A DNA stretch of 64,000 bases from Haliotis asinina (Eukaryota): positions 54,237,037 through 54,301,036 of the forward strand of contig NC_090280.1 of NCBI RefSeq assembly GCF_037392515.1. The letters run 5' to 3'. The notes under the pieces were generated by a model that was not told the origin of the DNA, did no database searches, and was given only the letters and a program-made list of their open reading frames with translations. This document shows positions 25,317 to 53,235 of this stretch, one piece after another (position 1 is the first letter of the stretch; every line of letters begins with the position of its first letter). The translations under genes and the position numbers were made by a program.

Positions 25317-25321
25317 AAACC
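25317..25321. repeat. Target-site duplication, left copy ('aaacc')
   Basis: Exact 5-bp direct repeat also found at 39625-39629, immediately outside both TIRs. A 6-bp reading is possible with one mismatch (gaaacc vs taaacc). Confidence 0.6.
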
Positions 25322-25642
25322 AGTAGTATAGGGAATGATAGTTCTGGACCACTTTCACAAAATGCCTCTACAAAGCCTTATTTAGTAAATAAGGCTTTGG
25401 TTGGGCCATTAGCTCTTGCTACTATTACCCCTACTACAAAATTACTGTGCCTTGGTAGGAGGTAACACTGTGCCGTACGGTACGATCAATAATTCTTCTC
25501 TTACAAATCCCCTACCCGGCCCATCCCTCAAGTAGTACAAGTTAGGTTCGTCGGCTTTCATATCCACTTTATCTATGTTGTAAGTTTTGACTGACCATAT
25601 AGGATCGGTGGCCCGCTTACGGCTATCGCCCTCGTGTTCCCC
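25322..25642 (+). repeat. Left terminal inverted repeat of the Polinton (321 bp)
   Basis: Reverse-complement of 39304-39624 with only a few mismatches, e.g. gcccgctt/gctcgctt, taaataagg/taattaagg and gggccattagctcttgc/gggctattagctcatgc (about 98% identity). Begins with AG. Confidence 0.85.
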
Positions 25643-26410
25643 CGGCTGGTATAGATACCTCACTAGGGCCCTATCTGGTATCTGTTTCTCCTTCCCACGC
25701 AATGGAGCGGCCGACTCTGCAACTATTGATTTTAGTTTGATAGCGTCTGCCGGTTTCTTACCGGTGAGACGGGTGACTTCATGGTTGATTGCCGACACCA
25801 CCTTGGGTAACCTCGTGACCCATTCAGTCGATCGTTTTCCAGGGGTGGCCATCTCCCTAGCATACTGATAGCCGAACAAGCGTTCAGCCAAAGTCCTATT
25901 AAATCTCTCAACTATGGCTTGGCTGCGATGGGCTCCGGCCGTGCCACGCCTGACCTTTGTATCGTGTTTGGCTAGCAGTTGTGACACGGCACCCATGAAC
26001 TCCCGTCCGGGGTCAACTTGCAGCTCTGTTGGCCACGTCAGCGGACTGCGTTTGTATATACGTTCGAATCCTCTGGCTACCTGGGCCGAATCTTTCGTGG
26101 TCAAGGGTTCGGCTTCCTTGTAACGACTGGCTACATCCACTACGGTTAAGGCATACTTGTACCTCTTGTCGTGGGGTAGGAACAGTAGGTCTGCCTGGTG
26201 AATGCTATTAGGTGTGTTAATACCGAACCTCCTTCTAGGCACGTAGCGTGGTGCCGGCAAATAGATCTGCCACAGGGCTTGTTTTTCAAGCCACGCTTTG
26301 GCTTCCTCCGGGGGTACTCGCGCTAGTTTAGCTAGCTTATCTACTGCGCTAGCTCCTTTCCAGTACCCACGCGGGCTGTAGTAAATAGCCTCAAATTTTT
26401 TCATGTCCAT
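25442..26410 (-). CDS. Retroviral-type (rve) DDE integrase, 322 aa
   Basis: ATG start. DDE triad context: ...SIHQADLLFLPHD..., ...ELQVDPGREF... and ...SQAIVERFNRTLAERLF..., which is the typical rve catalytic core. The 3' 200 nt lie inside the left TIR. Overlaps the pPolB stop by 20 nt. Confidence 0.85.
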   Translation of the reverse strand: MDMKKFEAIYYSPRGYWKGASAVDKLAKLARVPPEEAKAWLEKQALWQIYLPAPRYVPRRRFGINTPNSIHQADLLFLPHDKRYKYALTVVDVASRYKEAEPLTTKDSAQVARGFERIYKRSPLTWPTELQVDPGREFMGAVSQLLAKHDTKVRRGTAGAHRSQAIVERFNRTLAERLFGYQYAREMATPGKRSTEWVTRLPKVVSAINHEVTRLTGKKPADAIKLKSIVAESAAPLRGKEKQIPDRALVRYLYQPGEHEGDSRKRATDPIWSVKTYNIDKVDMKADEPNLYYLRDGPGRGFVREELLIVPYGTVLPPTKAQ

Positions 26411-29400
26411 ACGCGTATGTGTTTATACCATTAATAGCTATCCAACGTTTCGTGTCCATAGGCGATAGGGACGTCTTGTTTATAGTCAGTCCGTATATCT
26501 TATGCCCATCACTTCTAAGTGTGTTCATTTTATGTCTAAAGGTACGGGTCTTGAACAGGGCTTCCTTGAATCTGGCGTGTTTGATGTGTTGTTTCACCAC
26601 ATACTTCTTAACCCCCTTCGCCTTCCGGATCTCACTATTGTCGGCTTTCGGTATGGAGTACATCTTAGGTCTCAAACCTATGTACTCGGCTATGGGCGTG
26701 CCAGCACACTCGTCCTTCATCTTACCTAGGACCTTTTTATTTACAGTACTGTGTATGGCATGGGTCTTAGGGTAATCGCTGGTGTCGTATAAATCGAGGT
26801 GTTTTTTCATGTCCTCGTACACGTCCTCGGTTCGAATCTCCATCAGCAGGGAATCCGTGTCAGTGTACAGCACTTCACACCTGTCGCCGTACTGTTTCTT
26901 GAGCTCGTTGTAGTAAAAGTCGTACATCAGGTGTTTGGATAAATCGAGGATGCTCATCCCCACGTAAACAGGCCGGTTAAATTTTATGTGGCTTTTCTTC
27001 ATGTGTAGGGCAACCAGGTTGTCTGTGAATATCTTACTACGGTTGAATGCCGGACTGGCTATCAATCTCCTGAGCTTGTCTTCCTCACTCGACCGAACCA
27101 GCTTCACGGTCACGCGTTTCCTCAGGTTCTCCATAGTCTTACCAAACACCGAGTTGTTCATGAGCTTGTAGAGATTTTTCTCAAAATCACTGGTGGCTTT
27201 TTTTCGTAGGTCTGTGTTCATTCTGATGTAGGGCTCCATCCATGGACTCTGGTCGAACATGAGCACCCTGTGTATTTTGGTCAGCCTCATACCCAACGAC
27301 AGGTACAGCTGTAGGTTGCGATAGTGAACGATGTACTTGGTCTTATTTATTAAGTTAGGCACGAGTTTTTCAACGTCTGTCACACGCCCACCTGACAAGT
27401 TATGTTGGTACTCAGACATCCAGTCTGGGTTAACCCTCATACGTTCGGGTGCAAGGGGATAGCTGTTGTGCGATGTGTGTAATTCCTTGGGATACTCTAA
27501 GTCAACTTCGAGGATATAACCTTTGTTCGAATCTGGTGCAACCCCCATAACATCAACGTGGGGTACCCATTCGAATCCCCCTGTAGGTAGATACTGACTC
27601 ATGGCCCAGCCGTAGAGGTTGTTTGCGTCGAGGTAGAGAATGTGATTGGTTGGTTTGTTAGGATCGTAACCTTTCACGTATTGATTATTTGCTTTCGCGT
27701 ATCGTTTGGATGCCATGGAAATCCCACCTCGCAAGCCTTTCTCAATGAATAGGTGCATGTCGTAATCTGTGAGCAATTCTAAATTAACTCCGGTCTTTTT
27801 AAGCAAGGCGTCCCACGACAGACCTGGGCTGGTGTAATACCATGCGGGGTCGAGTTTATACTGCTTTAAACATGTCTGCCGAAACGTTTCAAACACGTCG
27901 GCTAACAGCAGTACATCTGTCCTCAAGTACAGGTCGTGATAATCACCCAGGTTCTTACAACCCAGTTTATTCCATACGTTAGTCGCGTGCGAGTAATCAT
28001 CTCGTGAGACGGACGCCTCATTCAGCTTGCTATAAAAGCAGTCAATAGGGGGTAGTCTGGTCTCGGTGAACTTGGCCCAACTATCCATGTACTCATAGGG
28101 GTACACACCCTTCCTCATAAGCAGGGGTCTAGTCTCGGCGTCTGTGTATCGATCGGTGATAGGGAAGGTATTGTTGGCCTTGACCAGACTGTCGAGTGAC
28201 GACAGGAGGAACTGAAACGAGTCAATGAACCTAAGTCCGTTTAAGCTGAAGGAGATGTATCTTTCCATGTTGTTGGGGATGCACGTTATATTACCATCGA
28301 TTTTCGCGATGGCCTGCATGATCAAGTGTGAGTCGTACCCTCTCAAGTTGTGAAAGACAACGGGGATGTTTATTGTCTTAGGGTTGATTTTAAGCTTGAG
28401 GTTGCACGCGTTGTGAGCGGCGCCTCTATACTTACCAGTTATGTGGCAGTGATCTCTCACCGAATCACCGTTAAGTGGTGAGTCGCACACGTGACAGTTA
28501 GTGCTACTAGCGTGAGCTAGCCTGTCGGCTCGGGTCATACGCATGGGAGCGATTCTATACAATGCATTCCTAATAATTTTTTCTTCCTCCTGCAAACACT
28601 TTAGAAACCTTTCAGCCGCGTCAGGGCCCCTATACACTACCGGAGCTTTAGTTTCCCCGTCACAACGGACGACAATGTATCCAAAACCGCAGGCCTTATG
28701 TTCCTGGGTTTTGTGGGTGAAGCTACCACCACTGGGGGCCTCGCCGGCGGCAGCCACTAAGGCTTCGAAGTCGGCGTATATGATGTAAGGTACAGACATT
28801 TGGTTCTTGTGGTTACTGAATTTTAGGATATTTTCACCTTCCTTAGGCATGTCGACTCGTATGGCTGTCTGCCCCACACCTTGGCAATCATCCCGGTGGG
28901 ATTCTAATAAATCAGCTCGACTGAAACCGTGTAGGCATCGTACACAAAAGTGTTTTTCCCCAACGTGTTTCGACTGGTCGTGCAACAACCGGCTGAGATG
29001 TTTTATCCACGTGTAGTGATACTTTTCACCTCGCTGGATCATGAATATATTGATAACTTGGCAATCCTTCACCGTGCTGACCCTGTGTACTATTGTTGTG
29101 TTACCTTCATACCCAAAGACATTTATAGCCAGATTATTCTGTTTTTCTACTTTAGTGATCTGGGATATGGGGGTGGGTTCATCTATACCATCCCAGTTGA
29201 GCCCATCGTCTTGGGGATAGCTAGAAAGCCTATCTGAATGAGTGCCAGCTGGAAATAAGGCTGACCTGATAGCTAACCTCAGGCAATCATTTCCTCTATT
29301 CTTAACGTTTACTATGGCATGTTTGTTCCTATAGTAGGGAGGCAAGGCTAGGTATGACCCGCCTCTGAACGGCACGTAGTTAGCTATGTCTAGATAGACA

Positions 29401-30086
29401 TTATCGATTTTATCTACAGCCCACCCGGACCCCAAGTGTGTGTAGCGTTCTAGGTATTCTCGTATCTGCTGAAAACTATTATCGATTGATGCGTCAATGG
29501 TCTCTGCATGTGTGACGACCTCTTGTTGACCTCGGAAGTAAGGCTGAACATACTCAGTGGTACTCCCAACCTGCTTATCGAGCGACATTTTCACTGTGAT
29601 CTGAAACTTGATACTTCCTAGATTATTTAGTTCCTGGTTGACCTTATCAGCTATCAGAGGCTTGATATCTATAATGTCTATGTTTCTATCAACGTGCATG
29701 CGCCAACCTCTCAAATAGTTGCCTACAGCGCGCTCAGTGCTCACGAACTGTAGGTCAATAGCTCTATTCTGCCGTAATAATTCTAAAAGCTGTGGTTTTC
29801 TCATACGGGAATACCCGCCTAAACCCAAATCGTGTGCCTCGGCTTTCAGTTGTTTTACAGTGGGAGGTTTTGCTACGGGGGCATGTGATAACAATGCGGT
29901 TAACCCGGCTCTCCCCAGGTTTGAATAACCCGTGTGCCCAAGCTGTTTTGCTTGAGCTTTTAATTGTTTTACCGTAGGAGGGGCTTCTAAACCTAGTAAT
30001 CTCAACAATGCTGACTTCCGCATTCTAGAATACCCGATCACACCTCTCTGTTTTGCGACCCTCTTGAGCTCGCGCACAGTAGACAT
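26391..30086 (-). CDS. Protein-primed family-B DNA polymerase (pPolB), about 1231 aa
   Basis: Exonuclease motifs: Exo I IIYADFEALV, Exo II VFHNLRGYDSHLI, Exo III YHDLYLRTDVLLLADVF. Polymerase motifs: A YLDANNLYGWAM, B KLMNNSVFGKT, C VLYTDTDSLLM. The N-terminus has three tandem SAP-like repeats of about 35 aa. The ORF track extends to 30110 using a TTG start; the first ATG is at 30084-30086 (MSTVRELKR...). Confidence 0.9.
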   Translation of the reverse strand: MSTVRELKRVAKQRGVIGYSRMRKSALLRLLGLEAPPTVKQLKAQAKQLGHTGYSNLGRAGLTALLSHAPVAKPPTVKQLKAEAHDLGLGGYSRMRKPQLLELLRQNRAIDLQFVSTERAVGNYLRGWRMHVDRNIDIIDIKPLIADKVNQELNNLGSIKFQITVKMSLDKQVGSTTEYVQPYFRGQQEVVTHAETIDASIDNSFQQIREYLERYTHLGSGWAVDKIDNVYLDIANYVPFRGGSYLALPPYYRNKHAIVNVKNRGNDCLRLAIRSALFPAGTHSDRLSSYPQDDGLNWDGIDEPTPISQITKVEKQNNLAINVFGYEGNTTIVHRVSTVKDCQVINIFMIQRGEKYHYTWIKHLSRLLHDQSKHVGEKHFCVRCLHGFSRADLLESHRDDCQGVGQTAIRVDMPKEGENILKFSNHKNQMSVPYIIYADFEALVAAAGEAPSGGSFTHKTQEHKACGFGYIVVRCDGETKAPVVYRGPDAAERFLKCLQEEEKIIRNALYRIAPMRMTRADRLAHASSTNCHVCDSPLNGDSVRDHCHITGKYRGAAHNACNLKLKINPKTINIPVVFHNLRGYDSHLIMQAIAKIDGNITCIPNNMERYISFSLNGLRFIDSFQFLLSSLDSLVKANNTFPITDRYTDAETRPLLMRKGVYPYEYMDSWAKFTETRLPPIDCFYSKLNEASVSRDDYSHATNVWNKLGCKNLGDYHDLYLRTDVLLLADVFETFRQTCLKQYKLDPAWYYTSPGLSWDALLKKTGVNLELLTDYDMHLFIEKGLRGGISMASKRYAKANNQYVKGYDPNKPTNHILYLDANNLYGWAMSQYLPTGGFEWVPHVDVMGVAPDSNKGYILEVDLEYPKELHTSHNSYPLAPERMRVNPDWMSEYQHNLSGGRVTDVEKLVPNLINKTKYIVHYRNLQLYLSLGMRLTKIHRVLMFDQSPWMEPYIRMNTDLRKKATSDFEKNLYKLMNNSVFGKTMENLRKRVTVKLVRSSEEDKLRRLIASPAFNRSKIFTDNLVALHMKKSHIKFNRPVYVGMSILDLSKHLMYDFYYNELKKQYGDRCEVLYTDTDSLLMEIRTEDVYEDMKKHLDLYDTSDYPKTHAIHSTVNKKVLGKMKDECAGTPIAEYIGLRPKMYSIPKADNSEIRKAKGVKKYVVKQHIKHARFKEALFKTRTFRHKMNTLRSDGHKIYGLTINKTSLSPMDTKRWIAINGINTYAYGHEKI

Positions 30087-30144
30087 CGTGTTTACACCTA
30101 AGAGAACCAATGTCTAATTGGTTCACAGTAAGGGGAGGTAACTC

Positions 30145-30405
30145 TTAAGTGGCTATCTTGAGCAGTCGCCTACGTTCTTTTATGTAGCCTTTTTTATTCT
30201 CGTAGATGAGTTGATGTCTGACTACGTTCGCTCCGTGAGCTTTACATAGACAGTAGTGTCCTTTAACCCCGATACCACACACAGAACACGTGTAGTTAGG
30301 ACTTCCCATATGGAAACAACAGAACCCCTGATTCCTGCATTTCCTACCACAGGCCTCGGTCTTCCCCATAAGTATGTATTCGCATCGGTATGGAGCGGGT
30401 CTCAT
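30145..30405 (-). CDS. Small Cys/His-rich protein, 86 aa (putative zinc-binding)
   Basis: ATG start. 11 Cys and 5 His in 86 aa, with CxxC-like pairs (CSVCGIG, CLCKAHG). Tightly packed between pPolB and the next ORF. Confidence 0.4.
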   Translation of the reverse strand: MRPAPYRCEYILMGKTEACGRKCRNQGFCCFHMGSPNYTCSVCGIGVKGHYCLCKAHGANVVRHQLIYENKKGYIKERRRLLKIAT

Positions 30406-30424
30406 GTTTACTTATATAGGTATT

Positions 30425-30850
30425 TTAGTTTAATTGCTTAGCAACCAACGCAGTAGCTGCTATACCCAACACTATGAAGCCCAGTTCACGATTCATTTGT
30501 CCCTTGGATGGTGTGTAGTACTGAGCGAGTGTGGGTTTATTGAGCGGTTCCAATTGTTTACCAGTTAGTAGATAGTATTCTTTCATTGCTTCATCGACAT
30601 CGTAGAATGTTTTAATGGCATGGTTTTCACGCTTGAGCTGTTCATTAATAAAATCGATCCTCTGGAGGCGTTTTTTAACGTACTCGTCCTGTGCCTTTTG
30701 TAAGTTCTCAGTAGCGAGATCGTGCCGCTTCCTTTCTTCCTGTATTTCAGCCGCGTGATCATCTCGTAGTTTCGAGAAGAGGAAATTACTCCCGGAAAAT
30801 GCCAGGGCATTCACTAACGCCCCACCGACCATCATAGCTATCGTGGCCAT
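30425..30850 (-). CDS. Hypothetical protein, 141 aa, with N- and C-terminal hydrophobic segments and a central charged coiled-coil-like region
   Basis: ATG start. The ORF fills the gap between neighbours with 8-19 bp spacers. Confidence 0.4.
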   Translation of the reverse strand: MATIAMMVGGALVNALAFSGSNFLFSKLRDDHAAEIQEERKRHDLATENLQKAQDEYVKKRLQRIDFINEQLKRENHAIKTFYDVDEAMKEYYLLTGKQLEPLNKPTLAQYYTPSKGQMNRELGFIVLGIAATALVAKQLN

Positions 30851-30858
30851 CCCTATAT

Positions 30859-31086
30859 TTATTTCATTATATTATCAGGTATTATTCCTTGTTTTACTAG
30901 GATGTCTTTTGTGGCCATCGCCATACCAAGGTTCATTATGAGCATACCCATATCCTGCAGGTTGAAATCTAGCTTGATAGTTGGTTGTTTAAGCACCATT
31001 TTAGTCAACCGAGCGTACCCTACTGCTAGACTGGCTACCACTGTGGCGTGGTATGCGTCGTTGACGAACGTTTTCCCCTCAGACAT
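30859..31086 (-). CDS. Hypothetical small protein, 75 aa
   Basis: ATG start and tight packing. No recognisable motif. Confidence 0.25.
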   Translation of the reverse strand: MSEGKTFVNDAYHATVVASLAVGYARLTKMVLKQPTIKLDFNLQDMGMLIMNLGMAMATKDILVKQGIIPDNIMK

Positions 31087-31113
31087 TATGTATATGATAT
31101 AAAATATTTTAAA

Positions 31114-31482
31114 TTATAACATGATATGCGGGTCTACCATGGGGGATACCCCCATACCCCCACTGTTGTGGGTGGGGGATACCCCCACACCCCCACTGTT
31201 GGGGGTGGGTGGTGGCTCACTGTGGGAGGGTACCCCCACGTATAACCACGAGATGGCCAAGGCAGCAGTTACACCTACAGCCAACAACAGTCGGGTTGGA
31301 TTGGCCACTTTATGTTGGTTACACCACCGTTTTTTACCGGCAGCTACTCTCTTAGGATTCTTCTGTCTGGTTACTGTTGAAGTGGTCTCCACCGTCACTG
31401 GTTCCTGTGAACTCACTGTTGGGGGTGTGGGGGGTACCACCACTGGGGTCTCCTCCACTGGGGTTTCCTGTGCAGCATCCAT
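31114..31482 (-). CDS. Pro/Thr-rich protein with one predicted transmembrane helix, 122 aa
   Basis: ATG start. PTP-rich N-terminus, a hydrophobic stretch LLLAVGVTAALAISWLYVGV, and an internal direct repeat PPPTPNSGGVGVSP/THNSGGMGVSP encoded by a GGGGG..CCCCC-rich DNA repeat. Overlaps the 3' end of the upstream ORF by 130 nt in another frame. Confidence 0.35.
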   Translation of the reverse strand: MDAAQETPVEETPVVVPPTPPTVSSQEPVTVETTSTVTRQKNPKRVAAGKKRWCNQHKVANPTRLLLAVGVTAALAISWLYVGVPSHSEPPPTPNSGGVGVSPTHNSGGMGVSPMVDPHIML

Positions 31483-32050
31483 CTATACTATTATTATTAT
31501 TCTTTCTCTCAAATTGGCAATGTTTTGCCGTGATAATCGCCGCCGTCACTGGAGCCAACAACATACCATATTTGTGGTACAGCCCGCAGCTGATAGAGCT
31601 CACGGCGTGTTCGATAAAAGGGTCTTTCTCGAGGTCCTCCCACAGGTAAAGTCGGCGCTCTGGTGGAATGGGAAGGAAGTGTGATACAATACCGGTGTAT
31701 ATCTGGGTCATAGCCGATCCTATTGTCTTTGTCATTTCTGCTCCGAGCCGGGACTCGTATCTAGCGTATAGCTTATCGATTTCTTCGGCTGACATTTTGT
31801 GAATTTTATCCGGAGTGTAGTCTCCAAAGTAATGTTTGGCTTTGCCGCCAACAGCCAACGCCACCAGTTTCTCTCGCTTGTCATCAGTGGGGCCTGCCGT
31901 ACCCCCAGGTACCAACTGTTCAAGCAATTCCTCACACTCCATCTTATAATATAACAAGTAAGATTTAGTTTTAACTATATAATACCCGATGCAGACAAAA
32001 CACAGAGAAATGAAGGTTAAGTTGCACACGATAAATACTTCAAATATCAT
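31352..32050 (-). CDS. Candidate adenain-like (Ulp1/C5-family) cysteine protease, 232 aa; assignment tentative
   Basis: By-eye resemblance to the adenovirus protease catalytic residue context: HFL (cf. HWL), RLYLWEDLEKDPF (cf. YLFDPFGF) and SSISCGLYH (cf. SAACGLFC). The spacing is shorter than in adenain. A protease is expected next to the ATPase in Polintons. Confidence 0.3.
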   Translation of the reverse strand: MIFEVFIVCNLTFISLCFVCIGYYIVKTKSYLLYYKMECEELLEQLVPGGTAGPTDDKREKLVALAVGGKAKHYFGDYTPDKIHKMSAEEIDKLYARYESRLGAEMTKTIGSAMTQIYTGIVSHFLPIPPERRLYLWEDLEKDPFIEHAVSSISCGLYHKYGMLLAPVTAAIITAKHCQFERKNNNNSIDGCCTGNPSGGDPSGGTPHTPNSEFTGTSDGGDHFNSNQTEES

Positions 32051-32141
32051 AGCTATATGCTTAGCTTTGCTTAGCTTTGCTTAGCTTTGCTTAGCTTTAG
32101 CTTAGCTTTGCTTAGCTTTGCTTAGCTTTGCTTAGCTTTGC

Positions 32142-32764
32142 TTAGCACACTCTATATGCTACTGGTTGGTCGGTCTTTAGTACGAGCTTAGCGTGTTTAG
32201 TTTCAGCGAGCTGTTTCTTCACCCGTTCCCGTTCTAATTTACTCATCACATCGTTCTCTCTCAAACACTCCTCAAACGAATCCCTGTCCTTGCAGTGAAA
32301 TAAGGCCACCCATCGCGTCTGCTCCCTGAGGTCTTTCAACACCGAGTTGAACTTCTGCGTTAGCACCCAGACGCTGTGATTTGCATGCCGGCCGGAGAAG
32401 GCCAGGTACGATAGCATGTCTCTCTTTTTTGTTATCTCGCGATTAGCGCTGCAGTCGTCTAATATGAACAGCGTCGGTTCTCCTTTAAATTTCTCGTGAA
32501 GAGCTTTCAACCAGTCCTGCAGGCGTGTTCCAGGGTCGATTTTGTGTACGTCCGGGTCATCACCCAAGGTCGCGCGTACGTTTTATTCATGCTCAGAGTA
32601 GGGCACATGATAACGATGTTATCGAACACATCCTTGTAATAACCCTCTAACATATCCAACACGAAAACGGTCTTCCCACAGCCAGTCTGCCCGCACACTA
32701 TGGCGCAGTGTGGGTCAGTGGGTAACCCCAGGGGGGTGTGGGGTGTGGGGGGGGTACCCCCCAT
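32142..32764 (-). CDS. FtsK/HerA-superfamily (poxvirus A32-like) DNA-packaging ATPase, disrupted by a 1-nt frameshift
   Basis: Walker A CGQTGCGKT in the 85-aa ORF 32507-32764. Walker B TLFILDDC in the 141-aa ORF 32142-32567 (TTG start). The frames differ by 1 nt. Adding one T to the T4 run at 32581-32584 (A4 on the coding strand) fuses them: ...MCPTLSMNKNVRATLGDDPDVHK... Confidence 0.8.
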
Positions 32765-34020
32765 CAGTAGATGGCTTGCACGAATCTCCCATTGTCTATA
32801 TTAAGTTGCGCGTCCATAATAACGTACAGATATAATTTCAACTTACCAGCAGTTTGAGCCTTCTTAGTAATCTGGATGGTTATCCCTTCGCTGCCGTTAT
32901 CTATACGGCGCCCGCTACCGTGCAGTTTATCATCATCCGTGGATCGCATGTCCAACCATAGGGCGTACTTGGTGGTCAGGTATTCACCGATCTGCACGGA
33001 GCTTAGGTCCAGGTCCTTTGTTATATAATCCCCCACTGGTAGCTTTTTTATCTCATCCCACTGCTGGTGTGGTCTCATACCATGACTGAACAGCTGGTTG
33101 GGCACGCCCTCGATGGTCACTTCCACCTTTTCAATCTCGGGGTTGAAAAACTTCTCGCTGTCCCTCTGGAATGGCTCGTAATCCTCCACGGGGACGACCA
33201 GGATACCTTTCATCGATCTCGCCGGCACGTTCAGGTTGATATTCCACACAGTGTCGCTCTTATCTTGCACGACTGATCTATGTCTCAGTACGCGATCGTA
33301 CAGGATAGCCATCTTCCCAGAGTACTGGCTTCGAACCTGCCTGGCCAGCTCCGGGCTAGTGACCATGTCGAACTCCAGAGAGATGTTGTCTATGGCATAA
33401 CTGGCCTCATCACCGTTCGGAGTACGCACTACTTTGCTATAGTCGTTAAACGTGAGCTCGTATTCGAGCCTATCACCCAGCGCGGCCTGGTAAAACGGCG
33501 CGTGTCCCGTGAGCAACTCGAAGTCGAGCGGCACGCAGAATCGATTCCCGTATGCTAGAGCGATGGCCTTTTCACCGGCCGATAGCTTGTCTTGCTGGTC
33601 TTGCGTGAAGACATACCCTATGCGCGCCCGGGTTGATTTGCTGATACCCTGGTACACATCATTGACTCGTTCTCCATCGCTTTTCCAGAGATCCTTGTAG
33701 CAGTGAAACACGTCGCTGTCGTCGATGCTCAGCACCTCGTTACCGCTGATCTTGACGGTCGTTTTCTTGATGATAGCTCGCCCCACGTTCCGCACTAGCT
33801 CGCGTTTATCGTTGACGGAGGTCAACGTGATATTGAACGCCAGTCGAACAGTGCCTGGTACAATGAGGTCATTCTCACCAAGGTTTGGAAATCTAACCAG
33901 CAGAGTTTGATTCTGGTCTATCTTGCTGGGATTATTGGTGATGGTCACCGACTGGCGCACGGCTCTGGCACCTAATGGCTCTCTCAATTTTCTGAAAGGA
34001 TCTAATTTTCTGCCGTACAT
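32764..34020 (-). CDS. Candidate major capsid protein (double jelly-roll type expected), 418 aa
   Basis: Largest unassigned ORF, immediately upstream of the ATPase with an ATGA stop/start overlap. Size fits Polinton and virophage major capsid proteins. No motif-level proof. Confidence 0.45.
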   Translation of the reverse strand: MYGRKLDPFRKLREPLGARAVRQSVTITNNPSKIDQNQTLLVRFPNLGENDLIVPGTVRLAFNITLTSVNDKRELVRNVGRAIIKKTTVKISGNEVLSIDDSDVFHCYKDLWKSDGERVNDVYQGISKSTRARIGYVFTQDQQDKLSAGEKAIALAYGNRFCVPLDFELLTGHAPFYQAALGDRLEYELTFNDYSKVVRTPNGDEASYAIDNISLEFDMVTSPELARQVRSQYSGKMAILYDRVLRHRSVVQDKSDTVWNINLNVPARSMKGILVVPVEDYEPFQRDSEKFFNPEIEKVEVTIEGVPNQLFSHGMRPHQQWDEIKKLPVGDYITKDLDLSSVQIGEYLTTKYALWLDMRSTDDDKLHGSGRRIDNGSEGITIQITKKAQTAGKLKLYLYVIMDAQLNIDNGRFVQAIY

Positions 34021-34053
34021 TGTTATATAAAAGAAATATATTTTTAATACTAA
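34021..34053. promoter_or_regulatory. 33-bp AT-rich divergent intergenic spacer with a TATATAAAAG TATA-like box
   Basis: Lies between the minus-strand capsid ORF start (34020) and the first + strand ATG (34054). Sequence ttatataaaagaaatatatttttaatactaatg. Confidence 0.35.
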
Positions 34054-34364
34054 TGGATGAAGATATACCTATGGATGAGATGCCGGGCGCTAGTGCCCAG
34101 GCATATGATGAGCAGGAGACCTCATTTACTAGTTCACCATTGAACCAAGAACTCTTGGAAACAACGGTAAATGATTATTTCGAAAGTTTAAGAAGAGATA
34201 AAAACTACGTTGAACCACAGGGTCGATACCATAAGGATTTTTTTATTGATACAAAGGGTGTTCTACGCCTTAAGTCTGACCCAGGGGTTGACCTCTTTAA
34301 CAAGAGCAATAAAAAACCACTGGCCTTGTCAACTCTAGCCAGCCGCTATGGTGTAAAAATCTAA
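34054..34364 (+). CDS. Hypothetical acidic protein, about 103 aa (ORF track begins at 34020 with a TTG start)
   Basis: First ATG at 34054 (MDEDIPMDEMPGAS...). Starts the + strand block, divergent from the capsid gene. Confidence 0.3.
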
Positions 34365-34366
34365 AC

Positions 34367-35200
34367 ATGAATGATTACGGTGGTGCAATACCTAAGGCCG
34401 TTAAAGAAGATCTGCAAGCTACCAGATCCCACCTCACCACTAGAGATGAAATGACACCACAGCGTGCTACAGAAGCCTCAGACAGCATAGAAAAACTGTT
34501 GAGCACCTACTGGGACAAACCGTTACCGGGGTTTGACTTTCCGGTAAGGGAACTGCGCGGCTTAGACGAAGCCGTGAAACGCGTGCGTGGAGAACTCGTG
34601 AACAACATGGGGAAACTGAACGAAATCGACGAGCACATCGCTAGGGAAAAAACCAAACTCAACGAAACTGAAAACGATGATATGAAGCGCCGTATCAATG
34701 AACGACTACGCGATTTAGAAGACGAGAGACGTACACGATTGGAATCCGCTTCCTCGAATCGTGAACAGCTTCGATCCCAGATCAGTCGTATTCGGGAAAC
34801 AATCGATAGAATACTGAATGAGGATACAACTTTAGCCAACAGGATTCGGATATTGTTCCGGGAGCAAGGGATCACCATCGCCAGTATTCTGACTGCATTG
34901 GGTTTTATCATATCAACCCTGGTGGTGTCACTGACGGGGGGAACCCCCACACATGGCGGAGGGGGAACTCCCAGCGGTGGTGGGGGTGTTAAAGACTGGA
35001 TTAAAAAACTCGGGGAAGGCCTAGCTAAACTGGCTGGTAAAGCCGCCGAAGCCCTTCCCGGCATACTGGGTAGCATCGTCTCGTGGTTGTTGAGCGCTCT
35101 GTCTAAAACTGCCATGTGGCTCAGTGAAAACCTGTGGGCAGCCATCGTCGCCGTGGCGGGTCTGGTGTACGTAGCGGCTAAGAAATCTTTAACCAAATAA
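34367..35200 (+). CDS. Coiled-coil and Gly-rich membrane protein, 277 aa
   Basis: ATG start. Long charged heptad-like region (REKTKLNETENDDMKRRINERLRDLEDERRTRLE), then a hydrophobic helix, a GGTPTHGGGGTPSGGGG linker and a second hydrophobic C-terminal region. Confidence 0.4.
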   Translation: MNDYGGAIPKAVKEDLQATRSHLTTRDEMTPQRATEASDSIEKLLSTYWDKPLPGFDFPVRELRGLDEAVKRVRGELVNNMGKLNEIDEHIAREKTKLNETENDDMKRRINERLRDLEDERRTRLESASSNREQLRSQISRIRETIDRILNEDTTLANRIRILFREQGITIASILTALGFIISTLVVSLTGGTPTHGGGGTPSGGGGVKDWIKKLGEGLAKLAGKAAEALPGILGSIVSWLLSALSKTAMWLSENLWAAIVAVAGLVYVAAKKSLTK

Positions 35201-36341
35201 GTCCCAAAGCTACCCCACCAACCACTAGGGCTGTTTTATTATCAATATGCTGCTGTACCCCCACATGCACATGAGGGTGTGTGGGGGACACATGAACTTT
35301 AGGCTCCGGGGGTGGCGCCACTATACCCTTTTCACGTGGTGGGATGTGTGGGATATAGGGGGTGTTAATATCGGGGTTGATACCCAACTTTTGGTCCGCC
35401 GTGGCTATGACTATTTTATTGTTATAACCCACCACTTTTTTTACTCTCAGTTGCATATCACTCGGAGCCATGTACAACCCCACGCCGAACACGTAGTTGA
35501 CTTTCGATCTGGCGTATTCTAACACGTTTTGGTAGCGTTCGATGGCCCGCGGGAGATCAACTGGAGAATTGATAGCATCCTCAACGTTGGAAACGAACTG
35601 TGTCTGAGCGTCGTAAGCAGTTCCCTTACCGAGGATGTTGGAACGCGTCATCGACTGCGCACCCAACAGCGCCCACACGTACGTTCGAATCGAGTCGTTC
35701 AAGCGTATTGTACCAGCACGAGTGAATTCTTTCGATGTTTTTGAGATCATTTTAGTCCAGGCTGTGGCTGCATCAGGATTGGTTTGCTTTATACAGCTGA
35801 CATGGATCTTTTCATTCGTTGTGGGGCCTGTAAATGTATGACGGTTTGGGTTGTATGAACCATCTTTAGAACCGGCCTGATATGTTCCGGACCTGTAGAA
35901 GTACACGAGAACTATACCGAGACCATGGTTCACACCAGGAAGGCGAAAGTCTTTATTCGTTGGAATCTCAAACTCCCCACAAATACGTTCATAAGCGCGT
36001 CTATCATAGGGGTTATTCGTCATACTCCACGCTTTATCTTGGGGAAGAGGAGCACTTATTTCCTTCAATATTCGTCTCGTTTGATAATAAATATGAAACA
36101 AAATAACCGCCTTACTCAGTTCGTCTATACCGTAGTCTGGTGTCACACCCGACCCTGTCGTCGCACACCACACAGCAAAGTTTAGTTGGTTCTGCCAAAA
36201 CTGCATTGGGTTTTGATTCCAGTTTACCATCGCCTGCGCGTTATTAACGGACACGATATATTTTTCAAAGATATTAATAAAGGTTGTTTTAAACCCCGTA
36301 CCATCTGCATTCACCACGATTTTCAAGTGTGCTAAATCCAT
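35178..36341 (-). CDS. Hypothetical protein, 387 aa, with a C-terminal hydrophobic anchor; possible structural (capsid or penton) protein
   Basis: ATG start. Intact long ORF inside the element, C-terminus ...ALVVGGVALGLIWLKIS. No diagnostic motif recognised. Confidence 0.4.
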   Translation of the reverse strand: MDLAHLKIVVNADGTGFKTTFINIFEKYIVSVNNAQAMVNWNQNPMQFWQNQLNFAVWCATTGSGVTPDYGIDELSKAVILFHIYYQTRRILKEISAPLPQDKAWSMTNNPYDRRAYERICGEFEIPTNKDFRLPGVNHGLGIVLVYFYRSGTYQAGSKDGSYNPNRHTFTGPTTNEKIHVSCIKQTNPDAATAWTKMISKTSKEFTRAGTIRLNDSIRTYVWALLGAQSMTRSNILGKGTAYDAQTQFVSNVEDAINSPVDLPRAIERYQNVLEYARSKVNYVFGVGLYMAPSDMQLRVKKVVGYNNKIVIATADQKLGINPDINTPYIPHIPPREKGIVAPPPEPKVHVSPTHPHVHVGVQQHIDNKTALVVGGVALGLIWLKIS

Positions 36342-36370
36342 ATTATAATATATAAATTATATATTATAAT
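36342..36370. promoter_or_regulatory. 29-bp AT-rich divergent spacer (attataatatataaattatatattataat)
   Basis: Lies between the minus-strand ORF start at 36341 and the + strand ORF start at 36371. Pure A/T with TATA-like runs. Confidence 0.3.
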
Positions 36371-37024
36371 ATGTACATAACACTTCCAGGAATAACGAGC
36401 GGTGAGGCCGTTCAGCTGACGCACGCGATCGATAACACGTCAGGTCAACTCGAAGTCGCACTCTGCGATATCACCTACCTACCGCAATGGACTAACATCA
36501 ACGCCAGCAACAATAAGCTGTTCGTCAGTGGAACTCGCAGTCAGATAACTGACGGCTACTACAGCGTGTGCTCTCTAAACGACGAGGTCTTCAAACCCCT
36601 GGGAGCCGAACTCAAGATGAACGACTCAAACGGTACAGTGGTGTTAATCAACAACGGAAGAACCTCCTTGAGGCTAGGCCGACCATTAGCGAGGATACTC
36701 GGTATGTCTCCTGACGAGATAAAACCAACAACAACCGTCACAGGCACGAAGTTACCCGACCTAGTACCGTACCGAGAGCTGTACATTCATCTCGATCAGG
36801 TGAGCACAACGTACAACATTCAAGGAGGTCACCCTTCCACTATACTGAGAGCAGTGCCGGTGAAAACTGAGAAATTCAACGACGGTAGAACCGAGTCATT
36901 TTCACCACGGCAGTATAAGAGATTAACCCAGGGCAACATACCTGAGCTGACAATATCGGTGTTAGATATAAATCATAATCCTGTAAATATAGGATACCTC
37001 AGCTTAACGCTTCACGTAACATGA
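36371..37024 (+). CDS. Hypothetical protein, 217 aa; size compatible with a single-jelly-roll minor capsid (penton) protein
   Basis: ATG start. Its stop overlaps the next ORF's start in an ATGA (37021-37024). Confidence 0.35.
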   Translation: MYITLPGITSGEAVQLTHAIDNTSGQLEVALCDITYLPQWTNINASNNKLFVSGTRSQITDGYYSVCSLNDEVFKPLGAELKMNDSNGTVVLINNGRTSLRLGRPLARILGMSPDEIKPTTTVTGTKLPDLVPYRELYIHLDQVSTTYNIQGGHPSTILRAVPVKTEKFNDGRTESFSPRQYKRLTQGNIPELTISVLDINHNPVNIGYLSLTLHVT

Positions 37025-37935
37025 CCAGCGCACAAGGGCCCGGAGTGAAAAAATGCGTCAATATCGGGATCTCCGACCTCGGAGACACACGCGGTTTCGA
37101 CGCTCCCGGAGTAGATGGTAAATCGTACGCCTTGCAACTGAAAAACAACATTTACAAACGCGTTGAAATCCCCTCCGGTGGAACCCTAAGTGATATGATA
37201 GATACCACAAGAGCAACAGTCAACACTAAGTACACCCTTGTCAACACCGGTGATGACAACTGGGTAATATACCCATCGTTCGGGGGTAAACTGTTCGACT
37301 TAGACGATGTTGAGAGCACTACCGTCGTCAAAAACAAACCATATATGCTCGTCTTCACCGAAGATGACAAGTGGGTGTTGTTACCCGATAAAGACGACTG
37401 GTTGATCAATATTAGACTCATCTCCCCTTACGTGTTCACAGATAACAAAGACAACCACCTAAACAAAGTCGTGAACAATGGAACCCTGCTCGTGGCTTAC
37501 GTCCCAACTCAAAGACGTAGCGTAGTCGTCAGCCCAGCCAACACTGCGGTAGCCCACATGCTATCGAGTAAACCGGCCGTACAAAACGTGAAATTGCAGT
37601 TGGTGTCTGAATTCGAAGGCGTGACCAAGGTACTAGATAATATAACGATAAACGGAACACTGATCATCAAAGTCTACCTAGGGGAACCATCGGGGAATAA
37701 TATCGAGATCGTGAAGGGGATCAAACTCGGGTGGGGTAAACAACATCAGTTTCAAATTTGTAATGTTTACGTGCGGGGGGGTGTCGACCCCAAGACCAGT
37801 CTACAGGGGGTCAACGTGATCGTGGAAAATAAGATATCACTAATCAATATCTTCCTGCCTGACAACATACACTTCATGGGTATGAAGTTAACCCCTGAAT
37901 TATTATCAGAAAACCAGTTGGAAATTATATCATAA
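37021..37935 (+). CDS. Lineage-specific protein P1, 304 aa; paralogue of the next ORF
   Basis: Shares an N-terminal LGDTRGFDAPG motif, a W(L)INI(R)L(I)SPY(V) block and a C-terminal LSENQLEIIS with ORF 37946-38644. Confidence 0.45.
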   Translation: MTSAQGPGVKKCVNIGISDLGDTRGFDAPGVDGKSYALQLKNNIYKRVEIPSGGTLSDMIDTTRATVNTKYTLVNTGDDNWVIYPSFGGKLFDLDDVESTTVVKNKPYMLVFTEDDKWVLLPDKDDWLINIRLISPYVFTDNKDNHLNKVVNNGTLLVAYVPTQRRSVVVSPANTAVAHMLSSKPAVQNVKLQLVSEFEGVTKVLDNITINGTLIIKVYLGEPSGNNIEIVKGIKLGWGKQHQFQICNVYVRGGVDPKTSLQGVNVIVENKISLINIFLPDNIHFMGMKLTPELLSENQLEIIS

Positions 37936-37945
37936 TAGTATAATA

Positions 37946-38644
37946 ATGACTAGTCATCATCCCAACACTACGCTTAACGACCTGGGAGATACGGAGGGAT
38001 TCGATCAGCCTGGTGAGGAAGATGAATTATACATCCTGCACTTCAAAGACAACGTGTACAGACGGGTGTCGTTATCAGATTTTAAAGAGCCCAAATGGCT
38101 GATCAACTTAACACTCACCTCACCTTATATCACAATAAACATAAATACGTGGATGATCTCTAAGATTAGGAACAACGGTATCTGGCCCGGGGATTTCATT
38201 CCGGAGAGGGAATTAGCATTCAAGATAGCTACTGCTGGTGCTGAAAAAAATATATTAAATTCTGGACCAAAAAATAAATTAACATTTAGCTATAATACTC
38301 ATAACATAAATCTTGTTAATAGAATATTCTCCCCTTTCACACTCATCATAGAAGTCTTCTTTACGTCTTTACTACATGAAAACATCTCAAGAGTACACCA
38401 AATTTTACCCGGGGTGTCAATACACTGGTATGACGAACAACACACATTCAAATATTGTCGTATTGTTATACAACAGAATACCACGGGTCCTATAAACAGC
38501 TTAATAAGCCTCAGTGGGGTTTTTATTACAACAGAAAAGTCTATTAGCCTCTCACCTATTACCCTGACTAGTAGTCTAAAACTTGTAGACTTCAAATTCA
38601 TTGATAAAGTATTAACTGAAACCCAATTAAAATATCTTTCATAA
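37946..38644 (+). CDS. Lineage-specific protein P2, 232 aa; shorter paralogue of P1
   Basis: LGDTEGFDQPG, WLINLTLTSPYI and a C-terminal LTETQLKYLS. Tandem duplicate of the previous ORF. Confidence 0.45.
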   Translation: MTSHHPNTTLNDLGDTEGFDQPGEEDELYILHFKDNVYRRVSLSDFKEPKWLINLTLTSPYITININTWMISKIRNNGIWPGDFIPERELAFKIATAGAEKNILNSGPKNKLTFSYNTHNINLVNRIFSPFTLIIEVFFTSLLHENISRVHQILPGVSIHWYDEQHTFKYCRIVIQQNTTGPINSLISLSGVFITTEKSISLSPITLTSSLKLVDFKFIDKVLTETQLKYLS

Positions 38645-38657
38645 TATATATTATAGG

Positions 38658-39275
38658 ATGGGTCTGTACCCAGTCGTAGAGGAAGTAGCGAAGACGCTGG
38701 AAACCGTAGATGGGTTCCGCTTGAGGCAGTTATGTGATGTGAAACGTCAACTAGAACAAGACCGTGACACGCGGAAAGCTCTATGTAAGAAGTACAATAG
38801 AGCTTTCAATATCGTGGACGGGGCTGACACTACCCTTATGGCAACCAGCATGGGACTAGGGGCGGCAGGCGTTGGGTTGTTAACCACCATCGTGGCTGCA
38901 CCTATAGTGCTAGGTATTGAAATAACGGCTGGGGTGACAGGGTTGGTAGGGTTGGCGCTTAAGTTAGTATCACGCAGACTTAATCGTAAGGCATTGAAAC
39001 ACGACGAGATCAGGGTTCTGGCTGAAGCAAAGCTGAACACAGTGAGTGAGCGTATTTCCACGGCACTCTCTGACAGTAAGATCTCAGAAGAGGAGTTTCG
39101 TTCAATCCTCTCTGAACTCACAAAATATAACGGAATGAAACAAGATATTCGGTCCAAGTCTCGTAAGTCTGCTATCAGCGAGGACGAGAAAAAAAAGTAC
39201 ATAGAACAGGGAATACAAAAAGCCCAGCAAGCCTTTATTACGAACACCAAAGAGATCATAGGCGGTTCACGTTAA
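38658..39275 (+). CDS. Hypothetical membrane protein, 205 aa
   Basis: ATG start. Central hydrophobic pair (GLGAAGVGLLTTIVAAPIVLGIEITAGVTGLVGLAL) flanked by charged regions. Last ORF before the right TIR. Confidence 0.4.
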   Translation: MGLYPVVEEVAKTLETVDGFRLRQLCDVKRQLEQDRDTRKALCKKYNRAFNIVDGADTTLMATSMGLGAAGVGLLTTIVAAPIVLGIEITAGVTGLVGLALKLVSRRLNRKALKHDEIRVLAEAKLNTVSERISTALSDSKISEEEFRSILSELTKYNGMKQDIRSKSRKSAISEDEKKKYIEQGIQKAQQAFITNTKEIIGGSR

Positions 39276-39303
39276 ACTGTTTCCTCGATATAAACATGAC
39301 ATA

Positions 39304-39624
39304 GGGGAACACGAGGGCGATAGCCGTAAGCGAGCCACCGATCCTATATGGTCAGTCAAAACTTACAACATAGATAAAGTGGATATGAAAGCCGACGAAC
39401 CTAACTTGTACTACTTGAGGGATGGGCCGGGTAGGGGATTTGTAAGAGAAGAATTATTGATCGTACCGTACGGCACAGTGTTACCTCCTACCAAGGCACA
39501 GTAATTTTGTAGTAGGGGTAATAGTAGCATGAGCTAATAGCCCAACCAAAGCCTTAATTACTAAATAAGGCTTTGTAGAGGCATTTTGTGAAAGTGGTCC
39601 AGAACTATCATTCCCTATACTACT
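39304..39624 (-). repeat. Right terminal inverted repeat of the Polinton (321 bp)
   Basis: Reverse-complement match to 25322-25642 and ends with CT. On the + strand it encodes a copy of the last 66 codons of the integrase (...GEHEGDSRKRATDPIWSVKTYNIDKVDMKADEPNLYYLRDGPGRGFVREELLIVPYGTVLPPTKAQ*). Confidence 0.85.
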
Positions 39625-39629
39625 AAACC
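39625..39629. repeat. Target-site duplication, right copy ('aaacc')
   Basis: See left copy. Confidence 0.6.
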
Positions 39630-50089: not shown

Positions 50090-53000
50090 GGTTTTTCTTA
50101 TGATGGTGGATAATGATTAGCATTGCTGTTGATGATGATGGTGACAATTGATTGAGGAGGTTGTTGTCGGTGATGGTGATAAACGATTAAGAATGTCGTT
50201 GATGATGGTTGTTAATGATTGGGAAGGTTTTTGTTGCTGGTAATGACTAGGATGTCTGTTGTTGATAATGGTGGTTAACGATTAGGAACGTTCTTGCTGG
50301 TAATGACTAGGATGTCTGTTGTTGATAATGGTGGTTAACGATTAGGAACGTTCTTGCTGGTAATGGTCGTCAATGACTAGGATGTCTGTTGTTGATAATG
50401 GTGGTTAACGATTAGGAACGTTCTTGCTGGTAATGGTCGTCAATGACTAGGATGTCTGTTGTTGATAATGGTGGTTAACGATTAGGAACGTTCTTGCTGG
50501 TAATGACTAGGATGTCTGTTGTTGATAATGGTGGTTAACGATTAGGAACGTTCTTGCTGGTAATGGTCGTCAATGACTAGGATGTCTGTTGTTGATAATG
50601 GTGGTTAACGATTAGGAACGTTCTTGCTGGTAATGGTCGTCAATGACTAGGATGTCTGTTGTTGATAATGGTGGTTAACGATTAGGAACGTTCTTGCTGG
50701 TAATGGTGGTTAATGATTAGGAACGTTGTTGCTGGTAGTGGTCGTTAATGGTCAGGATGTCTGTTGTTGATAATGGTGGTTAACGATTAGGAACGTTCTT
50801 GCTGGTAATGGTGGTTAATGATTAGGAACGTTGTTGCTGGTAGTGGTCGTTAATGGTCAGGATGGCTGTTGTTGATAATAGTGGTTAATGATTAGGAACG
50901 TTGTTGCTGGTAATGGTCGTTCATGATTAGGAGGACTGTTGTTGCTAATTGTGGTTAATCATTAGGAACGTTGTTATTGCTGATGATGGTCGTTAATGAT
51001 CAGGATGGCTGTTGTTGATAATTGTGGTTAATCATTGGGAACGTTGTTGCTGGTAATGATCGTTAATGGTCAGGATGGCTGTTGTTGATAATAGTGGTTA
51101 ATGATTAGGAACGTTGTTGCTGGTAATGATCGTTAATGATCAGGATGGCTGTTGTTGATAATAGTGGTTAATCATTAGGAACGTTGTTGCTAATGATCGT
51201 TAATGATCAGGATGGCTGTTGTTGATAATAGTGGTTAATCATTAGGAACGTTGTTGCTGGTAATGATCGTTAATGATCAGGATGGCTGTTGTTGATAATA
51301 GTGGTTAATCATTAGGAACGTTGTTATTGCTGATAATGGTCGTTAATGATCAGGATGGCTGTTGTTGCTAATTGTGGTTAATCATTAGGAACGTTGTTGC
51401 TAATGGTCGTTGATGATCAGGATGGCTGTTGTTGATAATAGTGGTTAATCATTAGGAACGTTGTTGCTAATGATCGTTAATGATCAGGATGGCTGTTGTT
51501 GATAATAGTGGTTAATCATTAGGAACGTTGTTGCTGGTAATGATCGTTAATGATCAGGATGGCTGTTGTTGATAATAGTGGTTAATCATTAGGAACGTTG
51601 TTATTGCTGATAATGGTCGTTCATGATCAGGATGACTGTTGTTGCTAATTGTGGTTAATCATTAGGAACGTTGTTGCTAATGATCGTTAATGATCAGGAT
51701 GGCTGTTGTTGATAATAGTGGTTAATCATTAGGAACGTTGTTGCTGGTAATGATCGTTAATGATCAGGATGGCTGTTGTTGATAATAGTGGTTAATCATT
51801 AGGAACGTTGTTATTGCTGATAATGGTCGTTAATGATCAGGATGGCTGTTGTTGCTAATTGTGGTTAATCATTAGGAACGTTGTTGCTAATGATCGTTAA
51901 TGATCAGGATGGCTGTTGTTGATAATAGTGGTTAATCATTAGGAACGTTGTTGCTGGTAATGATCGTTAATGATCAGGATGGCTGTTGTTGATAATAGTG
52001 GTTAATGATTAGGAACGTTGTTGCTGGTAATGATCGTTAATGATCAGGATGGCTGTTGTTGATAATAGTGGTTAATCATTAGGAACGTTGTTGCTGGTAA
52101 TGATCGTTAATGATCAGGATGGCTGTTGTTGATAATAGTGGTTAATCATTAGGAACGTTGTTGCTGGTAATGATCGTTAATGATCAGGATGGCTGTTGTT
52201 GATAATAGTGGTTAATCATTAGGAACGTTGTTGCTGGTAATGATCGTTAATGATCAGGATGGCTGTTGTTGATAATAGTGGTTAATCATTAGGAACGTTG
52301 TTGCTGGTAATGATCGTTAATGATCAGGATGGCTGTTGTTGATAATAGTGGTTAATCATTAGGAACGTTGTTATTGCTGATAATGGTCGTTAATGATCAG
52401 GATGGCTGTTGTTGCTAATTGTGGTTAATCATTAGGAACGTTGTTGCTAATGATCGTTAATGATCAGGATGGCTGTTGTTGATAATAGTGGTTAATCATT
52501 AGGAACGTTGTTGCTGGTAATGATCGTTAATGATCAGGATGGCTGTTGTTGATAATAGTGGTTAATGATTAGGAACGTTGTTGCTGGTAATGATCGTTAA
52601 TGATCAGGATGGCTGTTGTTGCTAATTGTGGTTAATCATTAGGAACGTTGTTGCTGGTAATGATCGTTAATGATCAGGATGGCTGTTGTTGATAATAGTG
52701 GTTAATGATTAGGAACGTTGTTGCTGGTAATGATCGTTAATGATCAGGATGGCTGTTGTTGCTAATTGTGGTTAATCATTAGGAACGTTGTTGCTGGTAA
52801 TGATCGTTAATGATCAGGATGGCTGTTGTTGATAATAGTGGTTAATGATTAGGAACGTTGTTGCTGGTAATGATCGTTCATGATCAGGATGACTGTTGTT
52901 GCTAATTGTGGTTAATCATTAGGAACGTTGTTATTGCTGATAATGGTCGTCAATGATCAGGATGGCTGTTGTTGCTAATTGTGGTTAATCATTAGGAACG

Positions 53001-53235
53001 TTGTTGCTGGTAATGATCGTTAATGATCAGGATGGCTGTTGTTGATAATAGTGGTTAATGATTAGGAACGTTGTTGCTGGTAATGATCGTTAATGATCAG
53101 GATGGCTGTTGTTGCTAATTGTGGTTAATCATTAGGAACGTTGTTGCTGGTAATGATCGTTAATGATCAGGATGGCTGTTGTTGCTAATTGTGGTTAATG
53201 ATTAGGATGGTTGTTCCTGATGATGGTGGGCATTT
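50090..53235. repeat. Satellite array, about 3.15 kb, 70-bp unit made of two diverged 35-bp half-units, with periodic variant units (higher-order structure)
   Basis: Unit ttgctggtaatgatcgttaatgatcaggatggctgttgttgataatagtggttaatcattaggaacgttg, repeated about 45 times. Variant units (ttattgctgataatggtcgt...gctaattgtgg) recur every few repeats. Lies in intron 4 of gene B. Confidence 0.85.

Follow-up and report, generated by a model that had tools for sequence, protein, structure and literature searches.

Very probably, a 4-nt deletion at about position 32555–32559 of the 64-kb window (the whole stretch of DNA analyzed) has inactivated the packaging ATPase gene of a Maverick/Polinton element; this placement follows from an A4 run that is shared with an intact relative, a 4-nt gap in the alignment with that relative, and the length of the affected segment in the homologues. 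A sequence-only reading had instead located the damage in the A4 run itself. For annotation, the difference matters: the copy should count as packaging-defective, with at least one other gene damaged, rather than as intact with one possible homopolymer error, and the relevant positions for reads are 32550–32565 and not 32575–32590. The polymerase, the integrase, the capsid gene, the terminal inverted repeats (TIRs) and the target site duplication (TSD) are still intact, which bears on catalogues of active Maverick/Polinton copies. Both the type of element and the type of damage are known; what is new is one more copy and the corrected lesion. The features of the element are collected in Table 1.

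Table 1. Features of the element and of its damaged genes, in window positions
Feature	Position	Strand	Remarks
Left TIR, starts AGTAGT	25322–25642		321 nt; preceded by TSD AAACC, 25317–25321
rve-type integrase, intact	25442–26410	−	PF00665, 41.2 bits (cut-off 32.6); single-frame tblastn
Protein-primed PolB (pPolB), 1239 aa, intact ORF	26391–30110	−	single-frame alignment with the 1230-aa PF03175 protein of L002, 63% identity
ATPase fragment 2	32142–32582 (listed ORF 32142–32567, 141 aa)	−	with TLFILDDC
ATPase fragment 1	32507–32764	−	85-aa ORF with CGQTGCGKT
Probable actual lesion, 4-nt deletion versus intact relative	32555–32559 (about)	−	DNA alignment with L001, segment lengths, family profile
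A4 run (T4 on the + strand), not the lesion	32581–32584	−	identical AATAAAACG in L001
Family-conserved ATPase start	32715–32792 (ATG 32790–32792)	−	29-nt overlap with the capsid protein gene, as in L002 and L004
Double-jelly-roll (DJR) major capsid protein, 418 aa, intact	32764–34020	−	directly upstream of the ATPase
Second frame-split gene	34020–35200 (ORFs 34020–34364 and 34367–35200)	+	ORFs in different frames; junction about 34350–34366
Right TIR, ends ACTACT	39304–39624		4 mismatches in 321 versus the left TIR; followed by TSD AAACC, 39625–39629

The element and its genes

Judging from its sequence, the region belongs to a Maverick/Polinton-type element that is integrated in a eukaryotic chromosome. 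It covers positions 25322–39624 (14.3 kb), and the long ORFs of the window are clustered at 25.4–39.3 kb, where the GC content is higher. The TSD is a perfect repeat of 5 bp, AAACC, and the sixth base differs. As for the flanks of the element, they hold microsatellites and satellites: a 70-nt satellite extends over 50301–53219, with 41.8 copies, 91% matches and a strong G-over-C skew, and more arrays, of 26/52-nt and 36/72-nt units, occur at 47.8–48.9 kb and 54.4–54.6 kb. Nothing in the window matched Rfam.

The 3′ end of the integrase gene sits within the left TIR, so that the right TIR carries a partial integrase-coding copy; the last ∼67 integrase codons are involved (25442–25642, with the counterpart at 39286–39489). 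In pPolB, motifs A, B and C are readable as DANNLYG, KLMNNSVFG and YTDTDS, respectively, and the Pfam scan of this protein itself did not report PF03175; Rho_N/SAP-like repeats (47 bits) occur at its N-terminus, and residues 526–572 resemble Endonuclease VII (25 bits). The element encodes a major capsid protein with the DJR fold, as Maverick/Polinton elements do. Regarding the adenain/Ulp1-like protease of Maverick/Polinton elements, no peptidase family was detected by Pfam at E ≤ 0.01 among 14 ORFs of the element, a scan that left out two ORFs of 114 and 75 aa and that a divergent protease could escape.

Two consecutive ORFs on the plus strand, 37021–37935 (304 aa) and 37946–38644 (232 aa), have in common the N-terminal motif ..DLGDT.GFD.PG..Y.L..K.N.Y.RV; they are without detectable counterpart in contigs L002–L004 and are probably a fast-evolving paralogue pair. 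Downstream of the ATPase, a 10-nt tandem repeat, TGCTTAGCTT, is present in 8.8 copies (32058–32146); it begins at the stop codon of the ATPase and takes up the space before the next gene. In the close relative L001 this repeat has fewer copies, and the next ORF overlaps the ATPase stop.

The ATPase gene is read in two frames

Walker A (GQTGCGKT, 32669–32692) and Walker B (TLFILDD, 32454–32474), as read in translation on the minus strand, are located in two overlapping ORFs in different frames, and no single uninterrupted ORF spans both motifs in the window copy; ORF coordinates and motifs agree on this point with the sequence-only reading. That they are two halves of a single gene is clear from the comparison with other proteins, because the listed relatives of the joined product are all single proteins. 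A protein search with the joined ATPase returned 973 homologous proteins, with P0001 as top match (E = 9.7e-123), and each of the 120 matches listed is a single protein of ∼194–256 aa with Pfam PF04665, Pox_A32.

The assignment of the fused protein to the A32/FtsK-type ATPases, also made earlier, held when it was checked against Pfam, with 34.7 bits for the protein restored by four nucleotides and 33.2 bits for that restored by one base in the A4 run (the A5 repair). The gathering threshold of Pox_A32 is 22.8 bits, and the separate ORFs fall below it, with 16.8 bits for fragment 1 and 21.7 bits for fragment 2. Among 26 aligned homologues, the G of Walker A, its C-G-K and the D-D of Walker B are invariant; the Q-T of Walker A and its last T are nearly so. 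A fold-level comparison and a PDB sequence search with the ATPase gave no specific match.

The A32-like ATPases of DJR viruses are taken to power the packaging of the genome into preformed capsids. By profile match and motifs, the window gene belongs to the A32-like (FtsK/HerA-superfamily) ATPases, and a role in genome packaging is predicted from this family and from the adjoining DJR capsid gene. The repaired protein is like the poxvirus A32/FtsK-HerA ATPases in its Walker A (GxxGxGKT), its Walker B (hhhhDD), its length of ∼200 aa and the capsid gene beside it; unlike them, the window ORF is broken between Walker A and Walker B. The window sequence is thus a predicted pseudogene of the A32-like family and not a functional member, because the gene is split by the 4-nt deletion.

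Position and nature of the lesion

Fragment 1 tracks the relatives through ...NKTYARPWVMT, after which it continues as an out-of-frame tail, RTYTKSTLEHACRTG, and a stop codon; the frame of fragment 2 is open from 32582, and its match to the relatives starts at DPDVHK. The frames had been proposed to cross at the T4 run 32581–32584. This run is only the 5′ limit of the open downstream frame, because the TAA stop of that frame, 32583–32585, overlaps it. With the upstream frame ending at 32507, any single base inserted within 32510–32582 would fuse both ORFs; homology puts the switch at 32555–32559.

The alignment with the intact relative (L001, about 97% identical in nucleotides; its protein P0001, 93% identical) is the most direct evidence. 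The sequence AATAAAACG is the same in both, and since L001 is intact, A4 is the normal state of the run. About 25 nt further 3′, L001 reads GTGATGACGGACCCGG where the window reads GTGAT----GACCCGG, or, in the wider alignment, TGGGTGATGACGGACCCGGACG against TGGGTGAT----GACCCGGACG; the codons are GAT GAC GGA CCC in L001 and GAT GAC CC in the window, whose positions 32551–32561 are GATGACCCGG. The extra four nucleotides of L001 are GACG or GGAC, the placement of the gap being ambiguous inside the GAC...GAC microhomology. A single-nucleotide frameshift in the A4 homopolymer, as claimed earlier, does not agree with this alignment, in which the run is unchanged and four nucleotides are missing elsewhere. 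Segment lengths point the same way: from CPT to DPG, the window has 77 nt, L001 has 81 nt and L002–L005 have 84 nt, that is, a multiple of 3 in all five relatives.

At the protein level, all of 19 aligned homologues follow the pattern C-P-T-x-x-x-N-[KAR..]-T-Y-x-x-R-x-W-x-x-x-D-P-[ED]-[VI], and P0001 reads SMNKTYARPWVMTDPDVHK here. The Y and the W soon after NK are invariant and the R is found in most aligned homologues; in the window, these residues are encoded by the upstream frame, past the A4 run. The protein restored by four nucleotides has 208 aa and contains ...NKTYARPWVMTDPDVHK....

These data also bear on the proposal that the native gene had A5 and lost one A at 32581–32584. One inserted T on the plus strand does give a continuous protein, as had been stated, and its Pox_A32 score is above the threshold; its length is 207 aa and not the about 228 aa given for it. 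The A5 repair swaps TYARPWVMT for NVRATLGD, and with it the conserved Y, R and W are lost; the fused peptide put forward, ...SMNKNVRATLGDDPDVHK..., departs from the relatives, which read ...NKTY..R.W...DP[ED]V.... Its segment falls short of P0001 by one residue and of the other homologues by two, and its best Pfam stretch is restricted to residues 91–175, compared with a single stretch over residues 18–176 for the 4-nt repair. On a family profile built from 18 homologues, with P0001 excluded, the A5 repair reaches 343.5 bits, 17 bits less than the 360.5 bits of the 4-nt repair. With A4 present in the intact L001 as well, the loss of one base from A5 is hardly credible.

A 1-nt repair at the junction itself, which gives WVDDPDV, was rejected: its score of 352.7 bits is 8 bits lower than with the 4-nt repair, and the resulting segment is short of L001 by one residue and of L002–L005 by two. 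An intron was likewise rejected, the window being colinear with L001, 4 nt shorter and without insert.

The two ORFs overlap by about 60–75 nt, as in some genes with programmed frameshifting, and the split could in principle be functional, either by programmed −1 ribosomal frameshifting or by two polypeptides that reconstitute the ATPase. However, the overlap is free of X XXY YYZ heptamers in every frame, no ATG precedes Walker B in the downstream frame, the 120 relatives listed are all single ORFs, the 93%-identical P0001 included, and the overlap itself stems from the 4-nt gap versus L001; a functional split is barely conceivable.

Proposed mechanism and its consequences

The 4-nt deletion could have arisen by replication slippage, or by microhomology-mediated deletion, across the 3-nt GAC direct repeat. 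In the secondary structure of the P0001 model, the site would fall after the second β-strand (IVIMCPT) and before the Walker B strand. Because the deletion shifts the frame, translation from the Walker A ORF would stop after 85 aa and give a peptide with the P-loop only, and the Walker B half would be without an initiation context of its own. With a P-loop fragment and a Walker B half that is not initiated, the copy would be unable to make its own packaging motor. As a transposon, it may still undergo copying and integration, because polymerase, integrase, TIRs and TSD are retained, or it may be packaged by the proteins of other copies.

Further damage in the capsid module

The conserved ATPase start is also affected, as its ATG opens an ORF of just 25 aa (MGDSCKPSTDGGYPPHTPHPPGVTH, followed by a stop) in another frame than Walker A. 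The linker that follows contains G8, C6 and G6 runs (32726–32762), and over this G/C-run linker the window is a net 41 nt shorter than L001. An in-frame ATG at 32764, which overlaps the capsid stop codon (TGATG), may substitute for the conserved start. The change of start and linker may be tolerable, because one relative, P0003, is without the N-terminal ATPase peptide altogether.

A palindromic G/C-rich 12-mer, GGGGGTACCCCC, recurs in the element: with up to 2 mismatches, a scan of the window gave 10 sites against 0.64 expected, all of them inside the element. The sites span 26310–34972 (for instance 31142–31237, 32718–32761 and 34936–34972), and most fall in low-complexity stretches rich in P, T, G and H of several element proteins. 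Together with homopolymer runs, the motif is found in coding linkers at gene ends, the one between the ATPase start and Walker A among them. It is highly doubtful that these G/C motifs are slippage-prone tracts of variable length that switch the frames of the capsid module on and off between copies, in the manner of contingency loci, rather than a site of plain decay.

The second frame-split gene lies next to the capsid gene and is transcribed divergently from it. All 120 homologues listed for it are encoded by one ORF, and both window parts align to one protein of 380–490 aa, which in the relatives is acidic at its N-terminus and has a coiled coil and, at the C-terminus, a membrane segment. 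The junction adjoins an A5 run (34355–34359), and here the window is ∼4–5 residues shorter than the relatives. The split would be due either to the loss of one base, from A6 to A5, or to a longer deletion of (3n+1) nt. Each of the remaining genes of the element aligns to its relatives in one frame, over practically its whole length.

Age of the lesion and the question of an assembly error

Over the ATPase core, on both sides of the deletion, window and L001 differ by 16 synonymous changes and 2 conservative nonsynonymous changes, with pS of 0.13, pN of 0.004 and pN/pS of 0.033. L001 is a relative and not the ancestor, since 13% of the synonymous sites differ. The low pN/pS indicates that the ATPase was under purifying selection for essentially all of the divergence between the two, and the dominance of synonymous changes makes the deletion recent, or artefactual. 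On these counts, the copy would be a recent insertion from a lineage in which strong purifying selection acted on the ATPase until very recently; for the same reason, intact sister copies may exist in the same genome. The earlier description of a frameshift in a young element is supported, and by this ratio the frameshift must be recent. That the element is otherwise intact is contradicted by the out-of-frame start codon and the split of the second gene, and the alternative then offered, between a first lesion and a homopolymer assembly error, was misframed, because the deletion removes 4 nt outside any homopolymer and other damage is present.

The frame of the element is disrupted in three places, two of which (the G/C-run linker and the junction at ∼34355) are in or beside homopolymers and could be consensus errors. 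The same explanation may be extended to the ATPase lesion, so that the true sequence at 32550–32565 would be GATGACNGACCCGG, the ATPase would be intact in the organism, and the lengths of the G/C runs and of the A5 run may be wrong too. It agrees with the homopolymer position of the other two disruptions and with the coding sequence next to the lesion, which has not decayed on either side and would look alike in an intact gene. Conversely, a loss of four nucleotides in GACGGACC is not of the homopolymer type. In the other element ORFs (11.6 kb), 180 runs of at least 4 bases, 47 of them of at least 5 and 5 of at least 7, are all in frame, so the consensus is not error-prone at runs; and the two TIR arms differ from each other, so the copy has had time for real mutations. 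An assembly or consensus error at the ATPase lesion is therefore unlikely, and a genuine mutation is the more likely origin, as judged from the assembled sequence of this copy rather than from reads or from a second copy in the same genome.

The element is best read, from its pattern of damage, as an endogenous copy at an early stage of decay; an ordinary decaying copy is suggested by the fact that at least one further gene is also broken.

Exact-sequence look-ups with the capsid protein of the window and with both ATPase half-ORFs matched no record. DNA-pattern scans of metagenome and viral contigs, performed with a junction pattern that allows both alleles and with a 36-mer common to the window and L001, gave 0 matches; since even L001 itself was missed, the L001 record is evidently outside those contig collections. 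L001 is the only close relative in the collections searched.

Comparison with known systems

Elements of the Maverick/Polinton type are said to have been described by Kapitonov and Jurka in 2006 and by Pritham and coworkers in 2007, the latter reportedly with TSDs of 5–6 bp. Like them, the window element has a size of ∼14 kb, long TIRs, a short TSD, pPolB, an rve integrase, an A32-like ATPase and a DJR capsid gene; its TSD, of 5 bp (AAACC), differs from the 6 bp of Maverick/Polinton. Its ends, AGTAGT...ACTACT, correspond to 5′-(AGT)2...(ACT)2-3′, one of the two end motifs described for Mavericks (PMC8097293). In vertebrates, 96% of the Maverick loci are degraded, by frameshifts and stop codons (Barreat & Katzourakis 2021, PMC8097293); a broken copy is thus unsurprising, because degraded copies are the norm for the class. 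The gene order of the window element is unlike that of vertebrate Mavericks, and its few named relatives are not from vertebrates but from mollusc-derived data (Elysia marginata and bins from lucinid clam gill samples).

As for bivalves, their genomes contain very large numbers of viral regions assigned to “Orthopolintovirales and PLV” (bioRxiv 10.1101/2025.04.19.649669). A morphogenetic module made of the capsid gene, the ATPase gene and flanking genes is common to the window and to contigs L002–L004. Unlike the PLV type, the window element has the classical Polinton layout, with pPolB, integrase and TIRs. In place of pPolB, L003 (9225–13768) and L004 (7150–11689) encode an AAA_30-type helicase and a protein of 660–730 aa; judging from these genes, this is an exchange of the replication module within the family, typical of the Polinton/PLV supergroup. 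Finally, on the single 2.5-Mb contig that holds L005 and L006, a capsid-ATPase block (genes of 220, 87, 443, 443, 438 and 227 aa) repeats at a spacing of 7140 nt, suggesting that another genome contains a related element in tandem or nested copies.
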